Notes: generated from the letters alone by a model not told the origin. A stretch of DNA of 64,000 nt from Marinicella sp. (GCA_965230295.1 OZ246001.1:608001-672000), one strand, 5' to 3'; shown: positions 1,116 to 57,108, numbered from the stretch's first letter. Numbers and translations: made by a program.

Positions 1116-1494
1116 GGAGAACTGTCGAACAGTTCGACCAGCGCAGGTAATGAAAGCTTGGTGGTTTACCTGATAAGGTAATAAGCCTTGCTTGAATACC
1201 ATAGCGCGTGCACTCGGTTAGGCAGATCATGTAAGAATGGCGATTTGACAAAGTCAAGAAGCCTTGATGGAATGATCGATAAGCCGTGAAGCCTCGCTGG
1301 TCGCTTCCGCATCGATCCCCAGAACGGGGTGAATGCAGAGAATTGTTGGGAACAATTCCTGCCTGCTCACGCGACAGACCTACATCCCTGTAGGCCAGCC
1401 AGAGGGTGTAAGCCCGAGATAGCAAGCCATGCCCGTCGAGGCCGTTTTCACTTTTGTTTCAACAAAAGTGAATGAAGTCCCAAGGGCATTCCTT
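1116..1494 (+). repeat. Modular palindromic intergenic repeat, copy 1 (~380 bp)
   Basis: Shares head GGA-hairpin-GACC and tail TTTCACTTTTGT...GAATGAAGYCCCAAGRRCATTCCTT with 24739-24887 and 53939-54571; 1307-1367 is nearly identical to 54340-54400. Confidence 0.9.
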
Positions 1495-4090: not shown

Positions 4091-5824
4091 CTACTTAATG
4101 AACTTCATGCCTTGTTGAAAGATGACATCAACTGGAATGCCGGCAGCATTGATGCGCTCTAACGATTTTTCTAATTGCTGGTTGATGTGCCCCTTATCTT
4201 CAAACCATTGTTTAACCCCAGCATAATCACCCGACCCTTGGTGGGTCAGAATTTTTTCCGATAAAGAGGCCACAGCGGCGGACATTTTTTCTGCATTCAC
4301 CGAATAATGACCTGTGGCTTCATCATAACTGAATGCGCCTTGCTCTGAGAAGTAGTTAAAACGAAGCAGGTTTGCAACACCATGAGCTGAACTTGAACCA
4401 AAACGAACCGAGCGGAAAATGCCTGCCATAAAGGTGGTGTAATAATCCATCATTTCACCCTCTTCCAGCTCACCCAACTTGTGTAATTTCTCCACCATAT
4501 ACAAGCCCAGAATATCGGCTTTGCCTTCTTCTATGGGTGAAGCCAATTCTTTCAATGCCGTTCTGACTGTTCCTTTATCATTGATGGTGTTTTTTACACC
4601 CAGACCATGCGCCACTTCATGAAACATGGTGTTGGCAAAAAACGCATTGAATGTGATGTGCTTTCTTTGTGAAGGTGTCACCAATTGTTCGGCTATGGGA
4701 ACCAAGATTTTTTCAAACTTGGCTTGCATGACATTTTTCAACTGTAACCGACGGGTGCCTTTTTCTAATTGTACACTTTCATCATTGGGCAAATTGATGG
4801 CAATGGTTTTACTACCGGCATTTGAATGGCCTGCATAATAAATGGCATCGTAAGCATTCAAGTCCGAATCCGTACCAGGCGTTTCTTGTTTATAGGCCTC
4901 ATCAACAGGCAATTCGGCTTGCAACTGCGGCAAAAAGGCCGCAAATTTCGCCAGTTTTTCACTCCAGGCCAAGTCTTTTATCAAGACATAAGCTTCATAG
5001 GCGGCTTTATAGCCAAACAACTGATCTTCATAGGTTTCAATAGGACCAATAACCAGTTCGATCGAATTGTTTTTCATGTCCATCCATGCCAAATCAGATG
5101 CCTTGAACTCGTCATTGACTAAGGCCGCTGCTCGCAAGGTGATGTATTTTTTAAATCCTTCATCCTCTGCCAATTCTGCAGCTTGTAACAACAAGTCAGA
5201 AGCTTTTTTAAGTTGGGCAGCATATGCTTCATAGAAGGGTACTGCCACTAAATTTCCAGCCTCGTCTCTCACCACATGGGTGTATAAACTCTTCATGGCT
5301 TCTGAAGCGGTTGCCTCAAATGCCTCTTTATCCAGATCTTTCGGATAAAAGTTAGCACCCAAGAATTTTTGTTCATAGCCCTTCAAGAATGGTTTATCCC
5401 CATCCAAACGATCCCATGGACCATAATTGATGTCAGCGAACTTTCTGAGTCTTTGATCACTGATGCTGTCCAAAAATGCTTGCTTAGGACCATAACTTTG
5501 TAACCAAAACAATTCATCCATAATTTCTGCTGCTGCCACCAACAAGGGCAACATGTCCTTTTGTTGTTGAGACAAATGAGACACATCACTGGTGAGCTTG
5601 AAAGTGGCGTATTTATTCAATAACTCACTGTGCTTTTTAGGTGTTTTTTCGACCAAGGGATCTTTTTGGTATGCCACATTTGAATGGTCTTTAGGTGGCG
5701 CTTGAGTAGATTCTGTCGCCGCCTCTTTTGCGGCGGCCGGATCTTCTGTTGTTGGTTCATTTTGGCAAGCACTGAGGCACAGAGCAAGCAGCATAAAAAA
5801 AGATGATCTTGAATAACTTTTCAC
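4091..5824 (-). CDS. Peptidase M49 family (dipeptidyl peptidase III-like) Zn hydrolase lipoprotein
   Basis: Lipobox LSAC; HEVAHG zinc motif; EEGKAD; GPIETYED; TIAINLPND. Confidence 0.85.
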   Translation of the reverse strand: MKSYSRSSFFMLLALCLSACQNEPTTEDPAAAKEAATESTQAPPKDHSNVAYQKDPLVEKTPKKHSELLNKYATFKLTSDVSHLSQQQKDMLPLLVAAAEIMDELFWLQSYGPKQAFLDSISDQRLRKFADINYGPWDRLDGDKPFLKGYEQKFLGANFYPKDLDKEAFEATASEAMKSLYTHVVRDEAGNLVAVPFYEAYAAQLKKASDLLLQAAELAEDEGFKKYITLRAAALVNDEFKASDLAWMDMKNNSIELVIGPIETYEDQLFGYKAAYEAYVLIKDLAWSEKLAKFAAFLPQLQAELPVDEAYKQETPGTDSDLNAYDAIYYAGHSNAGSKTIAINLPNDESVQLEKGTRRLQLKNVMQAKFEKILVPIAEQLVTPSQRKHITFNAFFANTMFHEVAHGLGVKNTINDKGTVRTALKELASPIEEGKADILGLYMVEKLHKLGELEEGEMMDYYTTFMAGIFRSVRFGSSSAHGVANLLRFNYFSEQGAFSYDEATGHYSVNAEKMSAAVASLSEKILTHQGSGDYAGVKQWFEDKGHINQQLEKSLERINAAGIPVDVIFQQGMKFIK

Positions 5825-6990
5825 GATGGTCTCCTGGTTAAGGTTGCTAGATAGTGTTGTTCTATGGTTTCAACGATCACTGACATGTGATATTTAAAAT
5901 CCCGGGGATGTTTTGAAATGGCTGTGAAATTTTGCTGAATGTCGTCTATTTTTTGGGCAAAATCTTTGGGGTTGTTACCCTCATACACAAATCCTTTGTT
6001 GTAATTGTCTGCCAGCCAACGCATGCCAGAGCCGACAGTATCAGGGACCAAAATAATTTTGTTGTGATACATGGCCTCCAGTAATACCACACCAAATGAT
6101 TCAGCCCGATCATTGGATGCCATACAAAACACATCACAAGTGTCATACAAAGCATGTATCTTTGACCAACTTTGGCTGCCCAATAATTCAACACTTTCAG
6201 TCAGATTCATTTGGTCGATCTGTTGAGATAATCTATGTTTCAATTGCCCATCACCGGCGATCAACAAGTGGCAATTGTGGGTCAATCGCATGGCTTCGAT
6301 CAACATTTTCTGATTTTTATAAAATGTCAACCGACCTAAATTAAACAGTTTGATTTTTTGGATCGGCCATTGCGCTCTGGCCCACTTCAATCCGGAAACT
6401 CTTTTTGCTTCATCCATTGATTCCAGCTCTTGGATTCTCAAGCCCAGTGGCACAACCACGGTTTTGTCGGCATGTTTAATTAATTGTTGGGAATGATCAG
6501 CGTAGTCCTGAGTAGAAACTAAAATACAATCTGACTGTTTTATCAGCCTGTTTTCAATCGGTTTAATGAACAGGTATATTAATTTCATTAACCACCTGCT
6601 GTTTCCGGTAACCATGTCCGAATGCCAGCTGAATACCCATGGTACCTGTTTGATCTTTTTATTCAGCAACAACATGAACAAACTGGGGTTCGGACCATGC
6701 AGGTGGACAATGTCCGGTTTTTGCTGTTGAAACAATTGCTTGATTTGTTTATTCAAGCCTATCATCAATGGGGCAAATAAGATGGGGCGCAATGATCGCA
6801 TCCTGATGACTTGAACACCATCAACCATTGCTGTTGTTTTTTTTGCCGTGATTGTTTGCCATTGGTGGTTGTGAACCAACACCGTCACTTGATGGCCTTG
6901 GCTGACTTGTTCTCGGGCGAGGTCACATAAGTAATGCTCCATACCACCATGGTAGGGTGGGTAGAATTTACCTATGTGCAGAATATTCAT
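5821..6990 (-). CDS. Glycosyltransferase family 4
   Basis: GKFYPPYHGGME, GRLTFYKN, ESFGVVLLEAM. Confidence 0.9.
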   Translation of the reverse strand: MNILHIGKFYPPYHGGMEHYLCDLAREQVSQGHQVTVLVHNHQWQTITAKKTTAMVDGVQVIRMRSLRPILFAPLMIGLNKQIKQLFQQQKPDIVHLHGPNPSLFMLLLNKKIKQVPWVFSWHSDMVTGNSRWLMKLIYLFIKPIENRLIKQSDCILVSTQDYADHSQQLIKHADKTVVVPLGLRIQELESMDEAKRVSGLKWARAQWPIQKIKLFNLGRLTFYKNQKMLIEAMRLTHNCHLLIAGDGQLKHRLSQQIDQMNLTESVELLGSQSWSKIHALYDTCDVFCMASNDRAESFGVVLLEAMYHNKIILVPDTVGSGMRWLADNYNKGFVYEGNNPKDFAQKIDDIQQNFTAISKHPRDFKYHMSVIVETIEQHYLATLTRRPS

Positions 6991-7001
6991 TTAACAACCA
7001 T

Positions 7002-7346
7002 TCAATGCTTGTCTTCATCCTGTTTAAGGGCATCTTCAAGAATGGCCATCTTTTGTGTGAGGCGCCTGATTTTTCTTTCTTTTTTGGTGAGCGCCATGTC
7101 CATGGTCAACATGCGGATCAAAATCATGCTGACTGCAAGCACCAAAAGTAAAGTGGGTGGGTATGTGATGCCTACTTTTGCGGCAACCCAGTCAACGCTG
7201 CTGGGGAAAATAGAAAGTAAAATGGCCGATACTGCCACCAACAACCACCAAGTTGCATAAGGGCCATGCATCTTACCTTTACGAACCAGATATAAAATAC
7301 TGATCGATAAAATGGCTCCAATTATCAGGATTGTTATGTTTGTCAT
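7002..7346 (-). CDS. DUF2304 family membrane protein
   Basis: Three TM helices, GITYPP motif, coiled C-tail (LTQKMAI); coupled to a GT2. Confidence 0.8.
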   Translation of the reverse strand: MTNITILIIGAILSISILYLVRKGKMHGPYATWWLLVAVSAILLSIFPSSVDWVAAKVGITYPPTLLLVLAVSMILIRMLTMDMALTKKERKIRRLTQKMAILEDALKQDEDKH

Positions 7347-8023
7347 TTAGTTGGCCTACTTCCCATATTTGCTATACACAAGGTTGTGGTTTGAATCATG
7401 TACTTTAAAACCACCAACCATGAGCTGAACACCCTAGATTTGCCGTCATTGCGGTCATGCATTTTAACAGGAACTTCATGGATAGTTAAACCCGCACCTA
7501 AAAGTAATAACAACACCCCGACATCCTGGTAATCCAACATACTCGCCGGCCTCGAAGCCAAGACCCGTATGGCTTGTTTGTCATACAACCTGAAACCTGA
7601 TGTCAAATCTTCAATTTTTATGTGAGTGAGCATTTTAAAATACTTCCAGGCCAGTTTTTTCATGCGGCTTAAACGTGATGGAAATGTGCCGATGATGACA
7701 TTCGCCTCACTGTCACTATAGACAGCTGTGAGGGTATTGACTTCATTGGGTAAATGCTGTCCATCAGCATCCATGGTAATGACTTGGTCATACTGGTGCT
7801 GTTCTGCATACCGAATACCAGTTTGTGTGGCGCCCCAGGCGCCCAACTGAATGGGCAATGTCAGACACATCAAACCGTGTTCCTTTACCACTTGAGCTGT
7901 TTGATCTGCACTGGCATCATCAACCACAACGATGTCATGATCCACTTGATCGAGCAACTGGGGTAGTAAATTTGTTAGATTATTTGCCTCATTAAAAGCA
8001 GGAATCACAATAAGTGTCTTCAT
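7343..8023 (-). CDS. Glycosyltransferase family 2 (polyprenol-phosphate glycosyltransferase-like)
   Basis: IPAFNE, VVDDAS, DADGQH, DLTSGFR. Confidence 0.9.
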   Translation of the reverse strand: MKTLIVIPAFNEANNLTNLLPQLLDQVDHDIVVVDDASADQTAQVVKEHGLMCLTLPIQLGAWGATQTGIRYAEQHQYDQVITMDADGQHLPNEVNTLTAVYSDSEANVIIGTFPSRLSRMKKLAWKYFKMLTHIKIEDLTSGFRLYDKQAIRVLASRPASMLDYQDVGVLLLLLGAGLTIHEVPVKMHDRNDGKSRVFSSWLVVLKYMIQTTTLCIANMGSRPTK

Positions 8024-8110
8024 GACTGAAGTATTGTTTTAAAATAAAGCACACGTTATATATCATGTACCCACTTTTGTGGTGTTTTTTTTCAATTATT
8101 TTATCATTTC

Positions 8111-9202
8111 ATGACGGACTTACCTGCTAACAATTCCATTCAAATCATTCACGACTTGTTTCAAATCAAAGGCGGTGGAGAACGGTTGATTCAAACCTTG
8201 TGTGAAAGCACTGGTGCAGACTTACTCACTGGACACATTGGATCGGATACATTTGAATTGAATCATTTGGCTGGACAAGTGCGCGATTTGGCGGCACTCA
8301 GCAACATCAATGGTATAAAAACCTGGCATCTTGCCAGGGCCTTCAGAAATCACCAGCCCAGTCACGAAAGCTATCAGACTGTGATTTACAGCGGTGTGGC
8401 CAGTCCTCTGGCTGTGAAGCAATACCCTGCTGCCAACAACATCTTTTATTGCCACACACCACCTCGTTTTGTTTATGACAAACGAGAACACCATGAAGCC
8501 GAATTGAATCGCATTAAAAAACTGGCATTTAACTTGCTGATCAGGTGGTTCAAACCCCAATATGAAGCCGCCGTGGCACAAATGGATGTGCTCTTAACCA
8601 ATTCGAACTATGTCAAAAAACGCATCAAAGACAACCTCAATTTAGATGCCACTGTGGTGTATCCACCCTGCGATACCAAACACTTTACATGGCAAAGCAC
8701 AGGTGATTATTATTTATCATTAGGTCGCCATGATGACTTGAAGCGCATCGATCAAATCATCAAAGCATTTAACCAGATGCCTGAAAAAAAGTTGGTTGTG
8801 GCATCTGGTGGAAACAACACACCTCAATTGCGACAATTGGCAGCCAACAACCCCAACATCAGTTTCACTGGATGGTTGAATGAATCTGAATTATTACAAC
8901 TGATGGGCGGTTGTTTGGCCACCATTTATATACCGATTGATGAAGATTTTGGCATGTCACCGGTAGAATCTATGGCCGCTGGAAAACCTGTCATCTGTTC
9001 AGATCATGGGGGTTTGTTAGAATCTGTCGTTGATCAAGAGACAGGATTCTATGTTTCAGGTGATGGTTTGCAACACAATCTAATTCAACAAGTAAGCAAC
9101 CTTACGCCAGCCAAAGCTGAAAGCATGCGATCTGCCTGTGAACACCGGGCCAAGGGCTTTGACACCGAATTGTTCTTGAAAAAATTCAAAGAATTTCTGT
9201 AA
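8111..9202 (+). CDS. Glycosyltransferase family 4
   Basis: GGGER, YCHTPPR, EDFGMSPVESMAAGKPVI. Confidence 0.9.
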   Translation: MTDLPANNSIQIIHDLFQIKGGGERLIQTLCESTGADLLTGHIGSDTFELNHLAGQVRDLAALSNINGIKTWHLARAFRNHQPSHESYQTVIYSGVASPLAVKQYPAANNIFYCHTPPRFVYDKREHHEAELNRIKKLAFNLLIRWFKPQYEAAVAQMDVLLTNSNYVKKRIKDNLNLDATVVYPPCDTKHFTWQSTGDYYLSLGRHDDLKRIDQIIKAFNQMPEKKLVVASGGNNTPQLRQLAANNPNISFTGWLNESELLQLMGGCLATIYIPIDEDFGMSPVESMAAGKPVICSDHGGLLESVVDQETGFYVSGDGLQHNLIQQVSNLTPAKAESMRSACEHRAKGFDTELFLKKFKEFL

Positions 9203-9206
9203 ACCC

Positions 9207-9233
9207 GCGACCATTTGACTCTAAACTCAGTCT
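9207..9233 (+). promoter_or_regulatory. Possible ECF-type (autoregulatory) promoter
   Basis: GCGAC-N17-AGTCT directly upstream of an ECF sigma gene. Confidence 0.3.
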
Positions 9234-9265
9234 TATTGGGTATATTGCATCATTTACTTTGAATT

Positions 9266-9817
9266 TTGAGCTATTTTAACCAAACCATCGACGACATCAC
9301 CAAGCACAGTGTATTGAAAGGAAAACAGAGTGCTTGTCGCCAGGTGTATGACATGTTTTCAACACCGGTCTATAACCTGGCTTATCGCATGCTTCAAAAT
9401 GCCGATGATGCCCAGGATGTGATGCAAAACGCATTCATCACTGCTTTTCAAAAAACTTCACAATGGTCGGGCAAAGTGGCTTTTGGTTTTTGGTTGAGAA
9501 AAATCGTGGTCAACCAATGCTTAGACCAGATCAAAAAGAATCACCACCAAATGACCATTGAAGTGGATGAATTGGCCGCACAAAGTGATCAATTACTTTA
9601 TGACCATCAACATGACTTGAGCTTGATGCTGGCAAAGTTGCCACCGCTATCACGTTCTGTCTTGTGGCTTTACGAGGTAGAAGGCATGACCCATCAAGAA
9701 ATTGCTGAGGTTTACCAAATGTCCACCAGTTTCTCTAAGTCACAACTGGCCAGAAGCAAACAACTGCTAACTAAATGGCTACAAAATCAGGAGCAAAATA
9801 ATGAACAACGCTTATGA
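9266..9817 (+). CDS. ECF RNA polymerase sigma factor
   Basis: Region 2 (DAQDVMQNAF, WLRKIVVN) and region 4 (EGMTHQEIAE...SKSQLAR). Confidence 0.9.
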   Translation: MSYFNQTIDDITKHSVLKGKQSACRQVYDMFSTPVYNLAYRMLQNADDAQDVMQNAFITAFQKTSQWSGKVAFGFWLRKIVVNQCLDQIKKNHHQMTIEVDELAAQSDQLLYDHQHDLSLMLAKLPPLSRSVLWLYEVEGMTHQEIAEVYQMSTSFSKSQLARSKQLLTKWLQNQEQNNEQRL

Positions 9818-10271
9818 TGCAAAAATAAACAAGCTGTTACTAGAACAGCCTCAAATGCTGCCAGCCAAAGATGGATTTGATGCCATCATGGATGAAGTTC
9901 ACCATCACCAAAGACAACGCAGCTTCAGGCTACCAGCCCTGGCCGCAGCCGTGCTGGCTGTCGTTTTGTTGTGGCAGTGGCCAAATTCTAACAACAATCA
10001 GTTACAAGAATTGAACTCGTTAACTGACAAAATTGCCTTGATCGAACAGGTGGTACGTAATGAAGTGATTAACCACTCAGTACCAGGTTCCCAGATCTTG
10101 GAAAAAATGGTTTCTATGGAAAACTGGTTGGATCAACTCGATCAGAACATCGCGCAAACTGATGACACCAACCAAAAACTCGAGCTGTTGCATGCCAAGC
10201 TCGAAATACTCGACGACCTTGTGGCATTGCATAAAAAGTACAAGTCACAAGGTTCACATCAAATGATTTAA
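9801..10271 (+). CDS. Putative membrane anti-sigma factor
   Basis: Overlaps the sigma gene; short cytoplasmic N-terminus, one TM helix, helical periplasmic tail. Confidence 0.6.
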   Translation: MNNAYDAKINKLLLEQPQMLPAKDGFDAIMDEVHHHQRQRSFRLPALAAAVLAVVLLWQWPNSNNNQLQELNSLTDKIALIEQVVRNEVINHSVPGSQILEKMVSMENWLDQLDQNIAQTDDTNQKLELLHAKLEILDDLVALHKKYKSQGSHQMI

Positions 10272-10291
10272 TACAGATAACAGGTGAAAAT

Positions 10292-11584
10292 ATGAAATTG
10301 AAAACTGCAATACTGACTGGCCTGATGGGCTTCAGTGGGATGGCTGCTGCGACAACCACCACTGCAAACACCAACGTCAACGTTGAAGTCAAAGACGGCA
10401 CAGGCAAAGTGGTCGTCATCAAAAATGTTGATGGTGATCAACAAACTTTTGAAGAGTCATTTACGGTTGGCCCAGACACCGACATCGATGCTGAAATTGC
10501 AGCCATCATGGAAGCACATGGACTTGACCAAGGCGAAAAGCATGTTCATAAAGAAGTCATCAAATTGGGTGACCACAGCAGCAACAAAATGGTGTGGGTA
10601 CAAAAAAGCGGTGATGTCGACATGAACTTGGTGGGTGGTAAAGCCACCGTGGTCATTAAGAAAGACAACAACGGTGATGTTGAAGTCATTGAGGAAACTT
10701 TTGACATGGAAGATGGTACAGACATCAATGTTCTGGTTGATCAATTGATGGAAGAACATGGCATCGAAGTTGGAGATGCTGAAGTGCATCGCAAAGTCAT
10801 CCAACTAGACAAAAGCTTCACTCGAATTGATGATGACAAGCCACGCATGGGCTTTATGGCCACAGTGAATGATGAAGGCTGGGAAATCATGTCAGTGGTT
10901 CCTGACAGTGGTGCAGCTGAAGCCGGCATCCAAAAAGGTGATGTGGTCATCAGCATCGATGGTGAAAGCACCGCCAAAGATGGTTTAGGTCTGACTGAGT
11001 TCATTGCCATGGATCATCAGGTTGGTGATGTCAGTGAAGTGGTGGTGCTGCGTGATGGCAACACCATTGCCATGAATGTGGCTGCTCGGGTCCTTGATTC
11101 ACCGGACATCATCATGGAAATGAACGGCAAGAACAAATGGTTCTCCTCATCTGGCAAAGATTTTAAATTCACCACTGGTGATTTGGATTCCATGTTCGAA
11201 GGTTTACATGTGGATGTTGAGCATTTGGGCGAAATGGTTGAAGGCTTGGGTGATCATGACATCCGCGTGGTTACCACGGGTGATGCCGATGCCTACTTCT
11301 TCTCTGGCAGTAAAATGAACCAATGGTTGGGTAAGAACCACCACTTTTCAACAGTCACTGAATCCTTGGGCAAATACTTTGGCACCCAACAAGGTGTTCT
11401 GGTCCTGGAGGTTGATGAAAACAATAAACTCGGCTTACAAGACGGTGATGTGATTCTTTCCATCAATGGTGATGATGTTAAATCACCCAAAGATGTGGTT
11501 AAAATCATGTCTGGGTTCAAGACTGATGAGTCATTTGAAATCGAAATCATCCGTGAAAAAGAAACCTTATATTTAGAGTCTTAA
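10292..11584 (+). CDS. Secreted PDZ domain protein with duplicated N-terminal module
   Basis: Signal peptide; two PDZ-like domains (SGAAEAGIQKGDVVISIDG; GLQDGDVILSING). Confidence 0.8.
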   Translation: MKLKTAILTGLMGFSGMAAATTTTANTNVNVEVKDGTGKVVVIKNVDGDQQTFEESFTVGPDTDIDAEIAAIMEAHGLDQGEKHVHKEVIKLGDHSSNKMVWVQKSGDVDMNLVGGKATVVIKKDNNGDVEVIEETFDMEDGTDINVLVDQLMEEHGIEVGDAEVHRKVIQLDKSFTRIDDDKPRMGFMATVNDEGWEIMSVVPDSGAAEAGIQKGDVVISIDGESTAKDGLGLTEFIAMDHQVGDVSEVVVLRDGNTIAMNVAARVLDSPDIIMEMNGKNKWFSSSGKDFKFTTGDLDSMFEGLHVDVEHLGEMVEGLGDHDIRVVTTGDADAYFFSGSKMNQWLGKNHHFSTVTESLGKYFGTQQGVLVLEVDENNKLGLQDGDVILSINGDDVKSPKDVVKIMSGFKTDESFEIEIIREKETLYLES

Positions 11585-11685: not shown

Positions 11686-11760
11686 GGACGCGTAGCTCAG
11701 CGGGAGAGCACTTCGTTGACATCGAAGGGGTCACTGGTTCAATCCCAGTCGTGTCCACCA
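11686..11760 (+). tRNA. tRNA-Val (GAC)
   Basis: Acceptor stem GGACGCG/CGTGTCC, TAGCTCAG D arm, anticodon arm CTTCG-ttGACat-CGAAG, GGTTCAATC T loop, encoded CCA. Confidence 0.97.
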
Positions 11761-24738: not shown

Positions 24739-24887
24739 GGAAAGCTGCTGAGCAGCTTGACCCGCCGAGCCGGTTGGTGAGCCTTGCGAAACAGAGGCGA
24801 AGAGCGCGAGGTAGCATGTCATGTTCGCCGTGGTCGCTTTCACTTTTGTCAGGAACAAAAGTGAATGAAGCCCCAAGAACATTCCTT
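24739..24887 (+). repeat. Modular palindromic intergenic repeat, copy 2 (minimal, ~150 bp)
   Basis: First ~37 nt nearly identical to 53939-53975; tail nearly identical to 1446-1494 and 54547-54571. Confidence 0.9.
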
Positions 24888-51999: not shown

Positions 52000-53772
52000 T
52001 CAAAACTCTGCTTCAGTGATGTCCATTAAGGTCTGGGCACCCGTCATGATGGTGGCTTTCAATGAATGACATCTGGGTAGAATTTTATTGAAGTAAAAGG
52101 CAGCAGTTTTCTTTTTTCCACTGTAAAAATCTGCACCCAACTGACCTTTGTTGTTTTCTGCTGAGGCATACATTTGTGCCCAGAAATAGGCCAGGACCAC
52201 ATAGCCAGACAACATCAGGTAATCCACTGATGCAGCACCCACTTCGTCTGGATTCTGCATGGCTTGACCAACGATGTGTTGTGTCACCTCTTGCCACATA
52301 TTGAGGTAACTTTGTAAATCATCATTCAACGGTGTGTTGTTGTCGTTGATGAAGGCCTGAATCAAATCAGCTATTTCACCCAATTGGCCTTTTTGCATCA
52401 TCAACATTTTACGCCCTGTCAGGTCAAGTGCCTGAATGCCGGTTGTGCCTTCATATAAGGTGAAAATCTTGGCATCACGGTGCCATTGTTCCTGGCCATG
52501 TTCACGGATGTAACCGTGTCCACCGTAAACCTGAACACCATAATTGGTGGCTTCCATCGCGACTTCGGTTAAAAATGCTTTGATGATGGGCGTTAAGAAT
52601 GCCAACAGTTGTTCTGCTTTTTGCACCTCATCAGCATCCTGACTGTGTTTGATCACTTCAATTTTTTGACCCACAAAATAAGCCATCGCACGGTTACCTT
52701 CGGCAAAGGCTTTTTGAGTCAACAACATGCGTCTGACATCGGCATGAACGATGATTGGGTCAGCCGGTTTATTGGGTAATTTAGGTCCTGTGGCAGAGCG
52801 CATTTGTAAACGGTCTTTGGCATAGGCCAAAGCATTTTCATAGGATGCTTGGGTGGCTGACAAACCTTGAATGCCGGTGTTTAAGCGTGCGCCATTCATC
52901 ATGGTAAACATGATTTTTAAACCATCATTGCCTTCGCCGATCAAATAACCTTTGGCATCATCAAAGTTCATCACACAGGTGGCCGAGCCATTCAAGCCCA
53001 TTTTGTGTTCAATACTCGCTGCTGCCAATGAATTGCGTTCACCCACTTCGTTGTTTTCATTCAACATGAATTTAGGCACCAAAAACAAAGAGATGCCCTT
53101 GGTCCCTTTGGGCGCATCCGGCAATCTGGCCAACACCAAATGAACGATGTTGTCTGCCAAATCATGCTCACCGGAGGTGATGAAAATTTTGGTACCTGTG
53201 ATTGCATAGAGCTTATCGTCAAGCGGTTTTGCCGAGGTGTTCACCAAACCCAAATCTGTACCACAGTGAGGCTCGGTCAGACACATCGTACCTGTCCATT
53301 CACCGGTGGTTAATTTGGGTAAGAACTGCTGTTTATGTAAGTCAGAAGCGAAATGCTCAATCAATTCCCGGGCACCATGGGTTAATCCCGGGTAGTTAGA
53401 CCAACCTGGACAGTAATAAGTGTTGAGCTCGCCCAAAATCAACTGCAACCAATAACTCAAACCTTGGCCACCATATTCAGGGTCACCATCCAATGAAGCC
53501 CATCCAGATTCGCAATAGTCTTTATAAAGTTGTTTAAAGCCATCTGGTGTGGTCACAGTATCGCCTTCATGACGACATGCCTGCTCATCGGCATTGCGAT
53601 TTAGGGGGCCTGCATTTTCATGCAAAAACTTTGAGGCTTCTTCCACAATGGTCATGAATGTTTCGGCATCGATCTCTTCATGCACACCGAGGTTTTGATA
53701 ATGAGAAGTGAGGTCAAGCACTTCATCGGCTATGAACTGAATGTCTTTAATTGGTGCGGGTATATTGGCCAT
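52000..53772 (-). CDS. Acyl-CoA dehydrogenase
   Basis: TMCLTEPHCGTD, GTKIFIT, EHKMG, QVYGGHGY, YEGTTGIQALD. Confidence 0.95.
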   Translation of the reverse strand: MANIPAPIKDIQFIADEVLDLTSHYQNLGVHEEIDAETFMTIVEEASKFLHENAGPLNRNADEQACRHEGDTVTTPDGFKQLYKDYCESGWASLDGDPEYGGQGLSYWLQLILGELNTYYCPGWSNYPGLTHGARELIEHFASDLHKQQFLPKLTTGEWTGTMCLTEPHCGTDLGLVNTSAKPLDDKLYAITGTKIFITSGEHDLADNIVHLVLARLPDAPKGTKGISLFLVPKFMLNENNEVGERNSLAAASIEHKMGLNGSATCVMNFDDAKGYLIGEGNDGLKIMFTMMNGARLNTGIQGLSATQASYENALAYAKDRLQMRSATGPKLPNKPADPIIVHADVRRMLLTQKAFAEGNRAMAYFVGQKIEVIKHSQDADEVQKAEQLLAFLTPIIKAFLTEVAMEATNYGVQVYGGHGYIREHGQEQWHRDAKIFTLYEGTTGIQALDLTGRKMLMMQKGQLGEIADLIQAFINDNNTPLNDDLQSYLNMWQEVTQHIVGQAMQNPDEVGAASVDYLMLSGYVVLAYFWAQMYASAENNKGQLGADFYSGKKKTAAFYFNKILPRCHSLKATIMTGAQTLMDITEAEF

Positions 53773-53774
53773 AA

Positions 53775-53792
53775 TTCAAACGTTTGTTTTAA
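53775..53792. promoter_or_regulatory. PsrA-type operator
   Basis: TTCAAAC-GTTT-GTTTTAA resembles the PsrA box (TTCAAAC-N4-GTTTGAA) and lies next to the start codon of a beta-oxidation gene. Confidence 0.65.
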
Positions 53793-53938
53793 AAAGAAAA
53801 GCATTTTAACATTGCTTATGTGAGAATAAAATAAACCAGCAGTAAATTTTGTGACTAAATCGAACAGCCGCTGGGTCAGTCTGCTCTACTTATGTGAAAT
53901 TGGGAAAAAACACACGAAGGTATATGCCTTGAATTCAC

Positions 53939-54571
53939 GGAAAGCTGCTAAGCAGTTTGACCCGCCGAGCCGGTTAGGCAAATCATGCAATCATGGCGAT
54001 TTTGCAAAGCAAAGAAGCCTTGATGTAATGATTGATTAGCCGTGAGCTTTTGTTATAGCGGCCGCTATCGCTCCTAGCTATCGCGGCAGACCTACATCCA
54101 TGTAGTCACCTCTGATACCGGCATCCTGCCTCCTCAGAGGACTTACTTCCATGTAAGCCAATCAGAGGCGAAGAGAATAGCCAATGAGCATATGGTGATT
54201 TGACGAAGTCAAGAAACCTTATGTGAATGGCGTTATAGCACAGGCAATGAAAGTTGGGCGGTTTTATCGAAGATAAAGAAGCCCGATTTGAATGCCGCAG
54301 TGCGTGCGAGGTAGCAAGTCTTGTTCGCCTCGGCAGCTACCGCATCGATCCCCAGGACGGGGTGAATGCAGAGAATTGTTGGGAACAATTCCTGCCTGCT
54401 ATCGCTGCATACTTACATCCATGTAAGCAGTCGTTTTCACTTTTGTCTGGAACAGACATGCAGTGCGAAGCAACTGCTCAGACAATAGTCTGTAAAGGTC
54501 GGTTTATTTGCGCAGCAAATATGAAGACCTGTCAGACCATGAACCAGAATGAAGCCCCAAGAACATTCCTT
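53939..54571 (+). repeat. Modular palindromic intergenic repeat, copy 3 (largest, ~630 bp)
   Basis: Same head and tail as copies 1 and 2; contains modules homologous to 1141-1211, 1215-1289 and 1307-1367 plus extra hairpins. Confidence 0.9.
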
Positions 54572-54572
54572 T

Positions 54573-55697
54573 TTAAAATGACTTGAGCGCTGACAAAAGT
54601 GCTTGATTCACCAGATCAATCCCGGCATTGTTGAAATGTGTTGGATCTCCAAAATACTGGCACGATTTTTTATCGGCAAACAAATCACGCAAGTCGATTA
54701 ACTTAAAATTTGGGTGATCATCAAAAGCGGCAATGATTTGTTGGGTAATGATTCCCGCATTTTGCGGTTTGTAGATGTAATCATGTGACTCATGTTCTGG
54801 CAACAACAACAAAACAAAATCTTTATTTTGTTGCAAGACATGGTCAATCAAAGTCGTCCAATTCTTGATCAATTGTGCCTGATTTTTCACCGGAGGCACC
54901 GGTAAATTTTTAGCGGCCCTCAGTTTTGCTATCGGGGTGCTGCAACTGCGATGTATAAAACTGAAGCCATCTAACTCAGTCACTGTGTGATCGATCACAC
55001 GGGTACTTTGAATGCAATCATCGATGGTTTTTAAAGGGTGTGCACACAGGTCATCTTTAACTTCTTTTTTGAAATTCAAAATGGCATCAATTGAGCCTTT
55101 TCTATTGGCGTATCTAATCCTGTTAAACCTGAATTTCGGGTTGTTAATGAATGCTTTTATGTCTGCAAAGTAAGTGACCCATGCCAACGAATAAAAGTGT
55201 CTTAACCACTCGTCATAAGGATGCAACGGCCGATAATTATCAAAATCCATGAATGCTTTGAAAGGCCATGCAACCTTGTATTGCTTATTCATATAGCTGT
55301 AATGAGCAAAGCCGTTTTCACTGATGCCAAGCATCACGCCTTGAAGTGAAGACATGTTCGCCATTGACCAGTCAATGGTGGTTTGGATGGACACAAAGTT
55401 AGCACTGCCAAATGACATTCGGGTGTGGACCAAACCTTGTTTCTGGCGTAACGCTGCAACATGTTGGTGGTTGATGCCCCAGTCCACCCTTGAATCGCCC
55501 ACTGTAATCCAGTTGATTTGATCAAGACCCTGGGACTCAATGGCTTTCAATCTATAGGTGACATCTCCTAAAAAAGATTCAGGCTTAACCCATTTGTCAT
55601 ACCACCCCACTCTGAGCATGATTTCGGTGATTAAAAACAAGCCCAGCAACACCACCCAGGGTAACCAGAATTTTTTATGTTTAAAAAATGACCACAT
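54573..55697 (-). CDS. SGNH-like periplasmic O-acyltransferase partner (AlgJ/DltD-like)
   Basis: N-terminal TM, GDSR and DPTH motifs; follows an MBOAT; start at MWSFF. Confidence 0.7.
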   Translation of the reverse strand: MWSFFKHKKFWLPWVVLLGLFLITEIMLRVGWYDKWVKPESFLGDVTYRLKAIESQGLDQINWITVGDSRVDWGINHQHVAALRQKQGLVHTRMSFGSANFVSIQTTIDWSMANMSSLQGVMLGISENGFAHYSYMNKQYKVAWPFKAFMDFDNYRPLHPYDEWLRHFYSLAWVTYFADIKAFINNPKFRFNRIRYANRKGSIDAILNFKKEVKDDLCAHPLKTIDDCIQSTRVIDHTVTELDGFSFIHRSCSTPIAKLRAAKNLPVPPVKNQAQLIKNWTTLIDHVLQQNKDFVLLLLPEHESHDYIYKPQNAGIITQQIIAAFDDHPNFKLIDLRDLFADKKSCQYFGDPTHFNNAGIDLVNQALLSALKSF

Positions 55698-55698
55698 A

Positions 55699-57108
55699 TC
55701 AGAACTGGAAATACATGAATGATTCGGCTTCCTGCGCACCAAAAAACACCAACAACAAGAGGAACAGTGATTGCCAGGTGACGTATGTCATGGTGCCCAT
55801 TTGGGTACAACGTTCAGCAAAACCATAATTAAAAGTCACTTTATGTAGCACCATTAAACCAACGACCAACGGGAACCCGAAACCATAAAAATCACTCAGT
55901 CTAACACCACCACTCATGGTAAAGATGTTTTCAATCATTTGAGTGCTTTGAGAAAAATCTTCCGCCCTGAAGAAAATCCACGCAAAACACACCAGATTAA
56001 AGACCAACATCCACTTCAATAACCTGACCCACTTAAGCTCTAAATTCCAAGATAAGGCCGGGTATTGTGCCAGTTTTCTTTCAATGGCAAGGTACACCCC
56101 ATGTAAAACACCCCACACGGCAAAGTTCCATGAAGCGCCATGCCATAAACCGCCCAAAAACATGGTTAAAAATAAATTTCTTTGCGTTTTCCAAGACCCC
56201 TTTCTGTTACCACCCAGGCTGATGTAAAGGTAATCTCTCAACCACCTAGATAAAGTCATGTGCCAGCGTCGCCAGAAATCCTGCACAGATAAGGCCACAT
56301 AAGGGTGATTGAAGTTTTTAGGAAACTGGAAGCCCAACAACAAGGCCACACCAATGGCAATGTCGGTATAGCCCGAGAAATCAAAATAGATTTGAAAAGC
56401 GAATGCATACACGGCAATCAGGGTCGTGATACCGCTCACACCTTCAGGATCATTGAAAACCGGATCTGCAATCAGGGCCAAATTATCAGCAAACACCACT
56501 TTTTTCACCAAGCCCAAAGTGATGATGAACACCCCTTTTTGCGCCATGTTAAAACTGAAGTGGCGTTTTTCATCAAGCTGTTGAAAGAATTCGGAGGCCC
56601 GTACAATTGGACCTGCAACCAGCTGAGGGAAAAATGAAACAAACAAAGCATAATCTGAAATTTGATGCCTGGGCGTGAGTTCTTTTCGATAAATATCGAT
56701 TGTGTAACTCAGACTTTGAAAGGTATAAAATGAAATACCAACCGGCAACAAAATATCTATGGCTGCCAACTGGTAATCATAACCAGTTGCCGCCATCACC
56801 TGATTGGCGCTGTTAAACACAAAATTGATGTATTTAAAGAACCCCAATATACCCAGGTTAACCAATAAGCTGATGTTTAAATATTTTCTGGGGTTATCGG
56901 CTTTGAAACACTTCAAACCGATGACGTAATCGGCACAGATGGTGACATAGATCAGAATCAAATAGGTCCAGTTCCACTGTCCATAAAAGAAGGCACTGGC
57001 AGCAACTAAAAACCAAATTTCCAGCCTTTTTGAATAAATCCGACACAATGCACTGACCAGCAACACCACAACCAGAAAAACAAAAAAGTCGACACTGTTA
57101 AAAAGCAA
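55699..57108 (-). CDS. MBOAT O-acyltransferase (AlgI/PatA-like)
   Basis: LPVGISFYTFQ, FPQLVAGPI, DFSGYTDIA, FWRRWH, GLWHGA. Confidence 0.93.
   Translation of the reverse strand: MLFNSVDFFVFLVVVLLVSALCRIYSKRLEIWFLVAASAFFYGQWNWTYLILIYVTICADYVIGLKCFKADNPRKYLNISLLVNLGILGFFKYINFVFNSANQVMAATGYDYQLAAIDILLPVGISFYTFQSLSYTIDIYRKELTPRHQISDYALFVSFFPQLVAGPIVRASEFFQQLDEKRHFSFNMAQKGVFIITLGLVKKVVFADNLALIADPVFNDPEGVSGITTLIAVYAFAFQIYFDFSGYTDIAIGVALLLGFQFPKNFNHPYVALSVQDFWRRWHMTLSRWLRDYLYISLGGNRKGSWKTQRNLFLTMFLGGLWHGASWNFAVWGVLHGVYLAIERKLAQYPALSWNLELKWVRLLKWMLVFNLVCFAWIFFRAEDFSQSTQMIENIFTMSGGVRLSDFYGFGFPLVVGLMVLHKVTFNYGFAERCTQMGTMTYVTWQSLFLLLLVFFGAQEAESFMYFQF

Follow-up and report, generated by a model that had tools for sequence, protein, structure and literature searches.

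BOX elements of Streptococcus pneumoniae and the bacterial interspersed mosaic elements (BIMEs) of enterobacteria are mosaic repeats, in which a fixed head and tail enclose variable internal units. Insertion sequences (IS) of the IS200/IS605 group and their non-autonomous palindrome-associated transposable elements (PATEs) leave no target-site duplication (TSD), prefer a particular 5' flank, carry hairpins near their ends and are oriented with respect to replication; in IS608-type transposons, which move as single-stranded DNA (ssDNA), the active strand lies on the lagging-strand template. The MITEs (miniature transposable elements with inverted repeats) ERIC, Correia, RUP and Nezha are 100-400 nt long, have terminal inverted repeats (TIRs) and TA or other duplications, and form one long hairpin (PMC3184786). 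The 'mobile/repeat sequence candidates' (MRSC, e.g. MRSC-65-2) from the Breaker laboratory's surveys for structured RNA are multi-copy, structured and inconsistently oriented, and their description leaves DNA or RNA as the active form open (PMC11109978). Here we analyse a 64,000-nt stretch of a Marinicella sp. genome (GCA_965230295.1 OZ246001.1:608001-672000; hereafter the window), which holds three copies of a modular intergenic repeat that resembles each of these systems in part.

The repeat belongs to a family that is real, large, well structured and, as far as we found, undescribed: no literature on it or on Marinicella repeats was found. We favour, with a probability of roughly 0.55, the reading that its members are non-autonomous interspersed 'mobile/repeat' elements, structured and acting as a single strand.

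Three copies in the window and a genome-wide family

The window corresponds to G000:C1:608001-672000, where G000 denotes the whole Marinicella sp. assembly (a single contig of 4,008,074 bp, 44% GC, 97.9% complete). An initial annotation of the window had described three same-strand copies, at 1116-1494, 24739-24887 and 53939-54571, and reading of the sequences confirmed their shared head, inner motif and tail. The copies, termed A (379 nt), B (149 nt) and C (633 nt), all lie on the + strand. Each opens with GGA, followed by a 7-bp hairpin and GACC; each contains CGAGRTAGCAWGYC, in the form CGAGATAGCAAGCC in A, CGAGGTAGCATGTC in B and CGAGGTAGCAAGTC in C; and each closes with TTTCACTTTTGT...GAATGAAGYCCCAAGRRCATTCCTT. 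The blocks common to the three were recovered by a repeat search of the window, in which the covariance model R1 matched these three loci only (B best, E=1.5e-44). Their parts, with helices named as in the fold described below, are the following:

53939..54571, +: copy C, the full 633-nt architecture, scaffold plus all modules
53939..53975, + (borders ±2 nt): head of copy C, with GGA, hairpin P1 (AAGCTGC/GCAGTTT), GACC and the 5' strands of P3
53976..54041, +: module a of copy C, a type I hairpin (GGCA..GGCGATTTTGC-AAA-GCAAAGAAGCC..) in the 5' strand of P4
54051..54155, +: modules f1 and f2 of copy C, type II hairpins (ends CCTACATCCATGTAG and CTTACTTCCATGTAAG) placed in P4's terminal loop
54174..54302, +: modules b and c of copy C, two type I hairpins at the junction of P3 (3' strand) and P5
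54329..54428, +: module g of copy C, about 100 nt, made up of two hairpins and an end resembling type II, following the 5' strand of P5 and preceding P6
54454..54545, +: module T of copy C, about 92 nt, in place of 5 nt of the 3' arm of P6
54546..54571, +: tail of copy C, GAATGAAGCCCCAAGAACATTCCTT, with GAACAT as 3' strand of P5, the long-range helix
24739..24887, +: copy B, 149 nt, scaffold only, between convergent genes
1116..1494, +: copy A, 379 nt, module-bearing, its head (GGAGAACTGTCGAACAGTTCGACC) of a diverged subfamily

The expectation that three copies in 64 kb would imply many more was borne out. Searching G000 with the three copies by blastn gave 578 high-scoring segment pairs in 132 clusters. 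With profiles of head and tail built from fifteen copies of about 149 nt we found 74 heads and 178 tails, and pairing of heads with terminal tails yielded 65 complete elements of 136-634 nt. R1 gave 107 matches at E<=0.001, corresponding to about 100 loci, since long copies can match twice; counts in some relatives are likewise high.

A six-helix core with optional hairpin modules

Alignment A1, in which copy B stands beside 53 copies of about 149 nt taken from 12 other genomes, gave an RNAalifold consensus of 41 pairs in six helices: P1, a two-part P3 enclosing P4, the long-range P5, a short G-C helix and the hairpin P6. P5 pairs ATGTTC with the GAACAT of the tail and encloses P6. Changes on both sides are found in 24 of the 41 pairs, against 5-10 when partners are slid by 1-3 columns, the pairing cells reach 97.7% against 36.0-40.8% in the same controls, and the covariation score is 0.282 against 0.041-0.056, with none of 500 shuffles reaching the observed values, although these figures overstate the number of independent events because subfamilies share descent. 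P5 alone occurs as ATGTTC/GAACAT, GTGTTC/GAACAC, ATGTCC/GGACAT, ATGCCC/GGGCAT, ATGCTC/GAGCAT and ATGATC/GATCAT. The same helices hold in GC-rich copies (57-62% GC) of G033, a genome from a different family of the order, and in tandem arrays of G000, G008 and G015, whose units lack P1. Across the genus and in G033 the unpaired bases GACC, GGTTGG, the GAGC/GCGA tandem G.A, ATCAGA, GCCGTGGTCGC and GAAGNCCCAAG are invariant.

The folding strand is GGA...CCTT. Its consensus energy is -40.4 kcal/mol, compared with -12.2 for the complement (RNAalifold), and G.U outnumbers A.C by 162 cells to 15 if the two invariant G.U pairs of P4 are counted, or by 39 to 13, counted by hand, if they are left aside. 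Single copies point the same way: the + strand of the 633-nt copy folds at -228 kcal/mol (z = -7.0) and its complement at -215 (z = -4.5), and for the 149-nt copy the values are -53.6 (z = -2.3) and -47.8 (z = -1.9). The strong covariation and the better folding of one strand agree with the proposal of the initial annotation that the element is non-autonomous and structured as a single strand.

A presence/absence map, drawn from the alignment of the 65 complete copies, resolves the family into a single 149-nt scaffold and blocks with fixed positions, each of which a copy either has in full or lacks altogether, in free combination. The size classes in G000 are 149 nt (n=14), 150 (n=1), 213, 215, 236 (n=7), 269, 300, 356 (n=3), 420 (n=3), 453, 485, 550 and 633 or 634 nt (n=7). 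That the copy of about 150 bp is the bare scaffold, as had been suggested, is upheld by these 15 short copies and by the other species retrieved, in which 149 nt is the commonest form. Modules a, b, c, d and e, with part of T, make up type I, hairpins about 65 nt long with the common motif GGCA-ATGA...GG(C/T)G(A/G)TTT-[short hairpin]-AAGAAGCC...TGAATGCC, and their stems vary by compensatory changes. Module T, which has 44 matches in the genome, holds a type I-like motif (GGTCGGTTTATTTGC-GCA-GCAAATATGAAGACC), and the P6 domain of the scaffold itself (GGTCGC-TTT...hairpin...TGAAGCCCC) bears the type I motif too. Type II modules (f1, f2 and the end of g) have a GTAG-bearing terminal palindrome such as CCTACATCCATGTAGG. 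A hairpin with a purine-rich internal loop recurs up to about six times per element. We considered a K-turn in the type I internal loop and rejected it, as the strand due to carry the bulge lacks, on checking by hand, a 3-nt bulge plus G-A.

The slots of the modules are loops and junctions of the fold only. Growth by nested insertion, which the initial annotation had proposed, is not supported in that wording: no duplications were found at module borders, two modules replace a few scaffold bases instead of being simply inserted, and the insertion of independent elements is unsupported because no module was found outside the family. When each module was searched by blastn against G000, almost all matches fell inside catalogued copies; of twelve loci behind the remaining matches that were checked against the family profiles, 8 have family profile matches nearby, and the three that were read are truncated or diverged family members, so that no isolated module was seen among them. 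Judged from the motif shared by type I modules and P6, internal duplication, recombination and loss fit at least as well as insertion.

A tree of the scaffold alone shows nested groups, one of 149 nt that contains 213, 215, 197 and 269, one of 236 with 300, one of 356/420/485/550 and one of 633 with shorter relatives. Because each architecture clusters on this tree, whole architectures appear to be copied as units; because the slot of a given module kind differs between species, modules would also move between slots by some route. Loci L158 and L159, obtained on the wrong strand, are excluded from this comparison. It is plausible that the 149-nt scaffold is ancestral and the larger forms derived, given that 149 nt is the commonest form in other species, that the lineages are nested on the tree and that homogeneity is slightly higher in the larger classes. 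Within the 633 clade, some members (434, 376, 453 and 500) resemble losses, and the data fit both gain and loss of modules, with no direction assigned to individual steps.

Head-to-tail arrays of the P1-less core unit were observed in three genomes: four units of 122 nt in G000 (C1:1313022-1313530), three or more of 155 nt in G008 (L161, C50), and two each of 150 and 132 nt in G015 (L162, L163). Every unit ends exactly at CATTCC.

Much of this architecture is what would be expected if the family were a structured RNA with a function, perhaps as a self-cleaving or self-ligating catalyst or in sequestering protein, with the DNA copies as its genes or processed copies and the modules as peripheral domains. 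Across families the core keeps its six covarying helices and its many invariant unpaired bases, G.U is tolerated far above A.C on one strand, modules occupy loops and junctions only, the purine-rich internal-loop hairpin is repeated within elements, and head-to-tail core arrays occur in three species, as expected of multimeric precursors. We nevertheless regard this possibility as on balance unlikely. The element has no conserved promoter or terminator in or beside it, its flanks being unrelated, and scans of copies B and C revealed no promoter-like or terminator-like site above shuffles; a look-up of RNA evidence for 53000-55500 of the window gave none. Orientation is random with respect to neighbouring genes, so read-through would give sense RNA at about half of the loci, and the genome has no reverse transcriptase to lead from RNA to DNA. 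Nor is there an Rfam match: at E<=1, 7 loci from 6 genomes gave 0 matches, with ribozymes, group I and II introns and bridge or omega RNAs among the families covered, and at E<=10 the surroundings of copy C gave 2 matches at chance level. Over the whole window, Rfam at the gathering threshold found only a tRNA gene (11686-11757, +, 64.6 bits). The family thus matches no Rfam family, and its further copies and module variants are found in this genome and in relatives, as the initial annotation had led one to expect.

Ends, sites and distribution

The ends of the element are sharp (GGAAAGC...CATTCCTT), and the flanks are unrelated between copies. Reading the 20-nt flanks by eye, we found no TSD in any of the 65 complete copies. 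The termini are weakly inverted (GGAAAGCTGCT versus GGAATGTTCTT, 7/11). Upstream of the GGA start, and not mentioned in the initial annotation, there is a C at -4, followed by three mostly A/T positions (C-W-W-W), in 50 of 65 copies in G000 and 47 of 59 in 12 other genomes; a T at +3 is a weaker signal (46/65 and 36/59, respectively). The C-W-W-W preference is one-sided, on the 5' side, and degenerate rather than a fixed tetranucleotide, and may belong to the target or to the element.

A classical MITE would be an internally deleted IS of the DDE type, mobilised by a transposase that recognises its TIRs, with the size classes as deletion derivatives of the 633-nt form. Small size, intergenic position, high copy number, the 7/11 inverted termini and the loss-like members of the 633 clade are all in keeping with this, and we consider it very improbable all the same. 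TSDs are absent from all 65 copies; G000 has a single rve gene and no multi-copy IS-like unit of at least 700 bp; the 149-nt form is the commonest in other species and the 633-nt form was found only in G000 among the matches listed; and the breakpoints between size classes are precise and coincide with helices. The earlier conclusion that the repeat has no TSD and differs from a classical MITE is therefore sustained by these flanks, by the weak terminal inverted repeat and by the lack of a parent IS.

The copies are intergenic, and the four possible arrangements of neighbouring genes hold 21, 18, 16 and 10 of the 65 (on a crude map of open reading frames, ORFs). Within co-directional gene pairs the element is sense in 16 and antisense in 21. 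Since neither count shows a preference, orientation is unrelated to transcription. For about one third of copies a stop codon is only a few bases away. Copy C, flanked by the 5' end of the gene for an acyl-CoA dehydrogenase (52000-53772, -) and by a gene for a 389-aa protein (54573-55742, -), ends 1 nt from the stop codon of the latter; copy B begins 6 nt after one stop codon and ends 12 nt before the other; and copy A lies between divergent ORFs (146-916, -, and 1535-2653, +). Copies C and A themselves contain ORFs, of 110 aa (54254-54586, +) and 107 aa (1102-1425, -), the former matching no Pfam family; both are probably artefacts, and annotation could mistake such ORFs for genes in every long copy.

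Orientation is linked to replication instead. GC skew places the origin at about 1.71 Mb and the terminus at about 3.82 Mb. On this basis the folding strand opposes the leading-strand direction in 49 of the 65 complete copies and for 73 of 106 terminal tails, or 69 of 102 if the tandem array is left out (p = 4.7e-4); at these 102 loci it is thus mostly on the leading-strand template. The sign of the bias is the same in all contexts (convergent 14:4, divergent 6:4, tandem-antisense 18:3, tandem-sense 11:5).

R1 at E<=1e-5 has matches in 22 of 24 Marinicella genomes, with counts of 84 in G000, 80 in G019, 75 in G021, 47 in G023, 21 in G016, 18 in G002, 15 in G001, 10 in G014, 9 to 1 in the rest, and 0 in G003 and G010. 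In an order-wide sample, 13 of 121 genomes and 4 of 55 genera have matches; outside the genus, G033 has 15, of up to 79.9 bits, G024 9 weak ones and G031 1 weak one. Named records with the exact tail motif point to Marinicella, being M. gelatinilytica or metagenome-assembled genomes labelled Marinicella or 'Lysobacterales'. Each species has its own consensus, with heads GGAAAGC, GGAGAGC or GGAGTGC and matching tails, and two subfamilies coexist in G021. Within a size class the scaffolds are 90-96% identical, and neighbouring genes between species about 66-75%, which points, like the spacer and the context loci described next, to turnover. The 633-nt form was not seen outside G000 among the matches listed.

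The spacer of copy B offers one clear case of lineage-specific occupancy. By match coordinates at least 8 relatives (G022, G012, G017, G007, G003, G023, G019 and G004) have only a few tens of bases in this spacer, and the four that were read have 6 to about 31 nt. In G021 the orthologous spacer carries a different, 354-nt member (L106, G021:C53:16250-16720), which runs from the G of one TAG stop to 1 nt before the stop of the other gene. Across the 23 other genomes of the genus we found no alignable empty site, and the spacers do not align because the flanking genes are only about 66-75% identical. Fourteen context loci from 10 genomes have no orthologous flanks in common, and synteny of the L023 region is lost in G003. 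Contigs from three runs over a 20-kb stretch with three copies break at the repeats, giving no bridging contig and no empty site, and the apparent joints in them link different copies. Each of 14 metagenome loci holds at most one full-length copy.

At a further site, a diverged copy (G000:C1:793535-793674, -) starts directly after the last base common to the two rRNA operon copies (4715-10815 and 787432-793532); the duplicate ends exactly at the element, so there is no empty site.

Copying agent and comparison with known systems

That the window has no transposase or reverse transcriptase is confirmed: the only Y1_Tnp and the only rve gene of G000 lie outside 608001-672000, and RVT_1 has no match at all. 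The rve gene (2687642-2687956) is unrelated and integrase-type. Y2_Tnp likewise had 0 matches in G000, but control genomes were silent too, so this result is uninformative. A retroelement, whether group II intron or retron, was rejected, there being no reverse transcriptase (PF00078, 0 matches) in a 97.9%-complete genome. In a self-comparison by megablast G000 proved almost free of insertion sequences: its multi-copy units of at least 700 bp are limited to the two rRNA operons, both tuf genes and repeats inside large genes. Two IS-like duplicates of 1.2-1.7 kb were discarded, one being tuf and the other an ORF-less repeat. A 1745-bp repeat occurs in two copies that are 99.9% identical (C1:1827740-1829484 and 3240985-3242729; L095, L098), with no ORF of at least 120 aa and no Rfam match. 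Among 379 ORFs flanking family copies no neighbour stands out as recurrent, the largest clusters of generic paralogues having 11 and 7 members. With the 633-nt copy as query, blastn in distant mode matched neither plasmids (PLSDB) nor phages (INPHARED), and a scan of IMG/VR for the core motif gave 0.

The single Y1_Tnp gene encodes a RAYT-like protein of 187 aa (C1:1669300-1669863; L022 1300-1863). The initial annotation had suggested looking for family copies that flank a RAYT, an IS200 TnpA or a reverse transcriptase gene; no Y1 TnpA with the family's ends was found in the genome or its relatives. The gene is flanked by inverted copies of a different palindrome (..GTTGACTTCAGTCAAC.. / ..GTCGACTGAAGTCGACGCTCC..), which is a small family of repetitive extragenic palindromic (REP) sequences of its own: a loose pattern occurs at 139 places, of which a few dozen fit the full palindrome by eye. 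Gene and palindrome form a REP/RAYT pair of the ordinary kind, which has no sequence relation to the modular family. At several places a REP of this palindrome lies 25-120 nt from a family copy.

This bears on the possibility that the family is REP/BIME-like or IS200/IS605-PATE-like and moves as ssDNA, with a Y1 HUH transposase (RAYT/TnpA) acting in trans. The absence of a TSD, the one-sided C-W-W-W preference 5' of the start, the hairpins near the ends, the replication-linked orientation and the presence of one Y1_Tnp gene in the genome would suit it, as would the GTAG-bearing palindrome that ends the type II modules, since GTAG-tagged REPs are reportedly known. It is nonetheless improbable. 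The Y1 gene is flanked by another palindrome with its own repeat family; Y1_Tnp is absent from the high-copy genomes G019 (94% complete, 80 matches) and G021 (99% complete, 75 matches) and present in G003 and G010, which have 0; the orientation bias is the reverse of the IS608 rule; and the conserved fold extends over the whole element, not the ends alone. The earlier view that the repeat differs from a REP/BIME array stands on the first two of these points, the separate palindrome of the Y1 gene and its lack of co-occurrence with copy number.

We return to the reading of the family as mobile/repeat elements that act as a single strand. The unit would be a nucleic-acid fold of about 120-150 nt, and not a pair of transposase-binding ends, in which optional hairpin modules sit like the expansion segments of a structured RNA. 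Whole architectures would be copied as units to new intergenic sites, often against stop codons and without a TSD. The form that is copied or selected would be a single strand, either ssDNA at the replication fork or RNA, and the copying might be carried out by a host enzyme or another enzyme. A single strand at the DNA level seems somewhat more likely than a transcript because of the replication bias of about 70:30 and the indifference to gene direction. We infer mobility as a unit, a single-stranded active form and an ancestral scaffold.

Several points weigh against this interpretation. Shared subfamily descent inflates covariation among repeat copies. The invariant unpaired bases, together with modules like expansion segments, characterise functional RNAs more than they do selfish DNA. 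No insertion or excision was caught between close strains, the relatives being about 66-75% identical in their genes. RVT_1 (PF00078), the TnpB domain and the IS110 transposase all have 0 matches in G000, with matches in the control genomes, and Y1_Tnp, though present in 16 of 24 Marinicella genomes, does not follow the number of copies. The replication bias runs counter to the IS608 rule and may reflect selection against hairpins, not mechanism.

A more speculative and rather doubtful idea is that the 120-150-nt core represents a new functional class of fold that drives or guides its own propagation, either as a self-cleaving or self-ligating RNA or as folded ssDNA that enters the nascent lagging strand at the fork without a dedicated transposase. 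Were the core a self-processing RNA, processed monomers would explain the sharp ends and the head-to-tail arrays, and were it self-propagating in either form, the modules would be true expansion segments of the fold. Small bacterial interspersed repeats are usually simple hairpins tied to a known transposase, whereas this family has a complex covarying fold that has been kept across a genus and also in one further family of the order, and that grows and shrinks by modules resembling expansion segments. It is present in about 100 copies in a genome with almost no IS, no reverse transcriptase and no co-varying transposase. Owing to the conservation of the fold, the modules, the copy number and the opposite bias, it is a clean system for studying how orphan structured repeats are copied, as DNA or RNA. 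The range of 0 to about 84 matches over 24 genomes sets up a comparison of gene content for a partner, and the possible reading as a functional RNA, ribozyme included, is the reason why the family merits bench work.

The family lacks the defining features of a classical MITE, of a REP/RAYT system, of an IS200/IS605 PATE and of a retroelement. With IS200/IS605 PATEs it shares the absence of a TSD, what may be a flank preference on the 5' side, hairpins near the ends and a replication-linked orientation; unlike them it has no matching Y1 transposase, its bias is of opposite sign and its structure is conserved over the whole length. The REPIN unit is a tagged palindrome of 20-40 nt, whereas the unit here is a 149-nt six-helix fold with a GTAG palindrome in type II modules only. 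BOX elements and BIMEs are strings of simple hairpins or palindromes, whereas the family keeps a core with a long-range helix and invariant unpaired bases; BIMEs go with RAYT and the family does not; and the taxa and, going by description, the sequences are unrelated. It does fold as a single strand, lacks a transposase of its own and has a variable middle, as they do (for BIMEs see also PMC3184786).

As described for ERIC, Correia, RUP and Nezha (PMC3184786), the family is intergenic, has tens to hundreds of copies, lies near gene ends and is predicted to fold. Unlike MITEs, it has no TSD, a weak TIR and a multi-domain fold.

The frequent transposase, integrase, nuclease or helicase neighbours described for MRSCs (PMC11109978) are not seen among the 379 flanking ORFs. 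Unlike MRSCs, the family has no transposase or integrase nearby, its fold is much larger (six helices, one of them long-range), its modules occupy fixed slots in elements of 149-634 nt, and there is no relation by sequence or Rfam. Like MRSCs, it has many copies, an inconsistent orientation toward genes and a structure supported by covariation, and in both RNA or DNA as the active form is undecided (PMC11109978). Thus the family works most like the MRSCs, and an unnamed motif in that paper (PMC11109978) could be related to it or even be this family.

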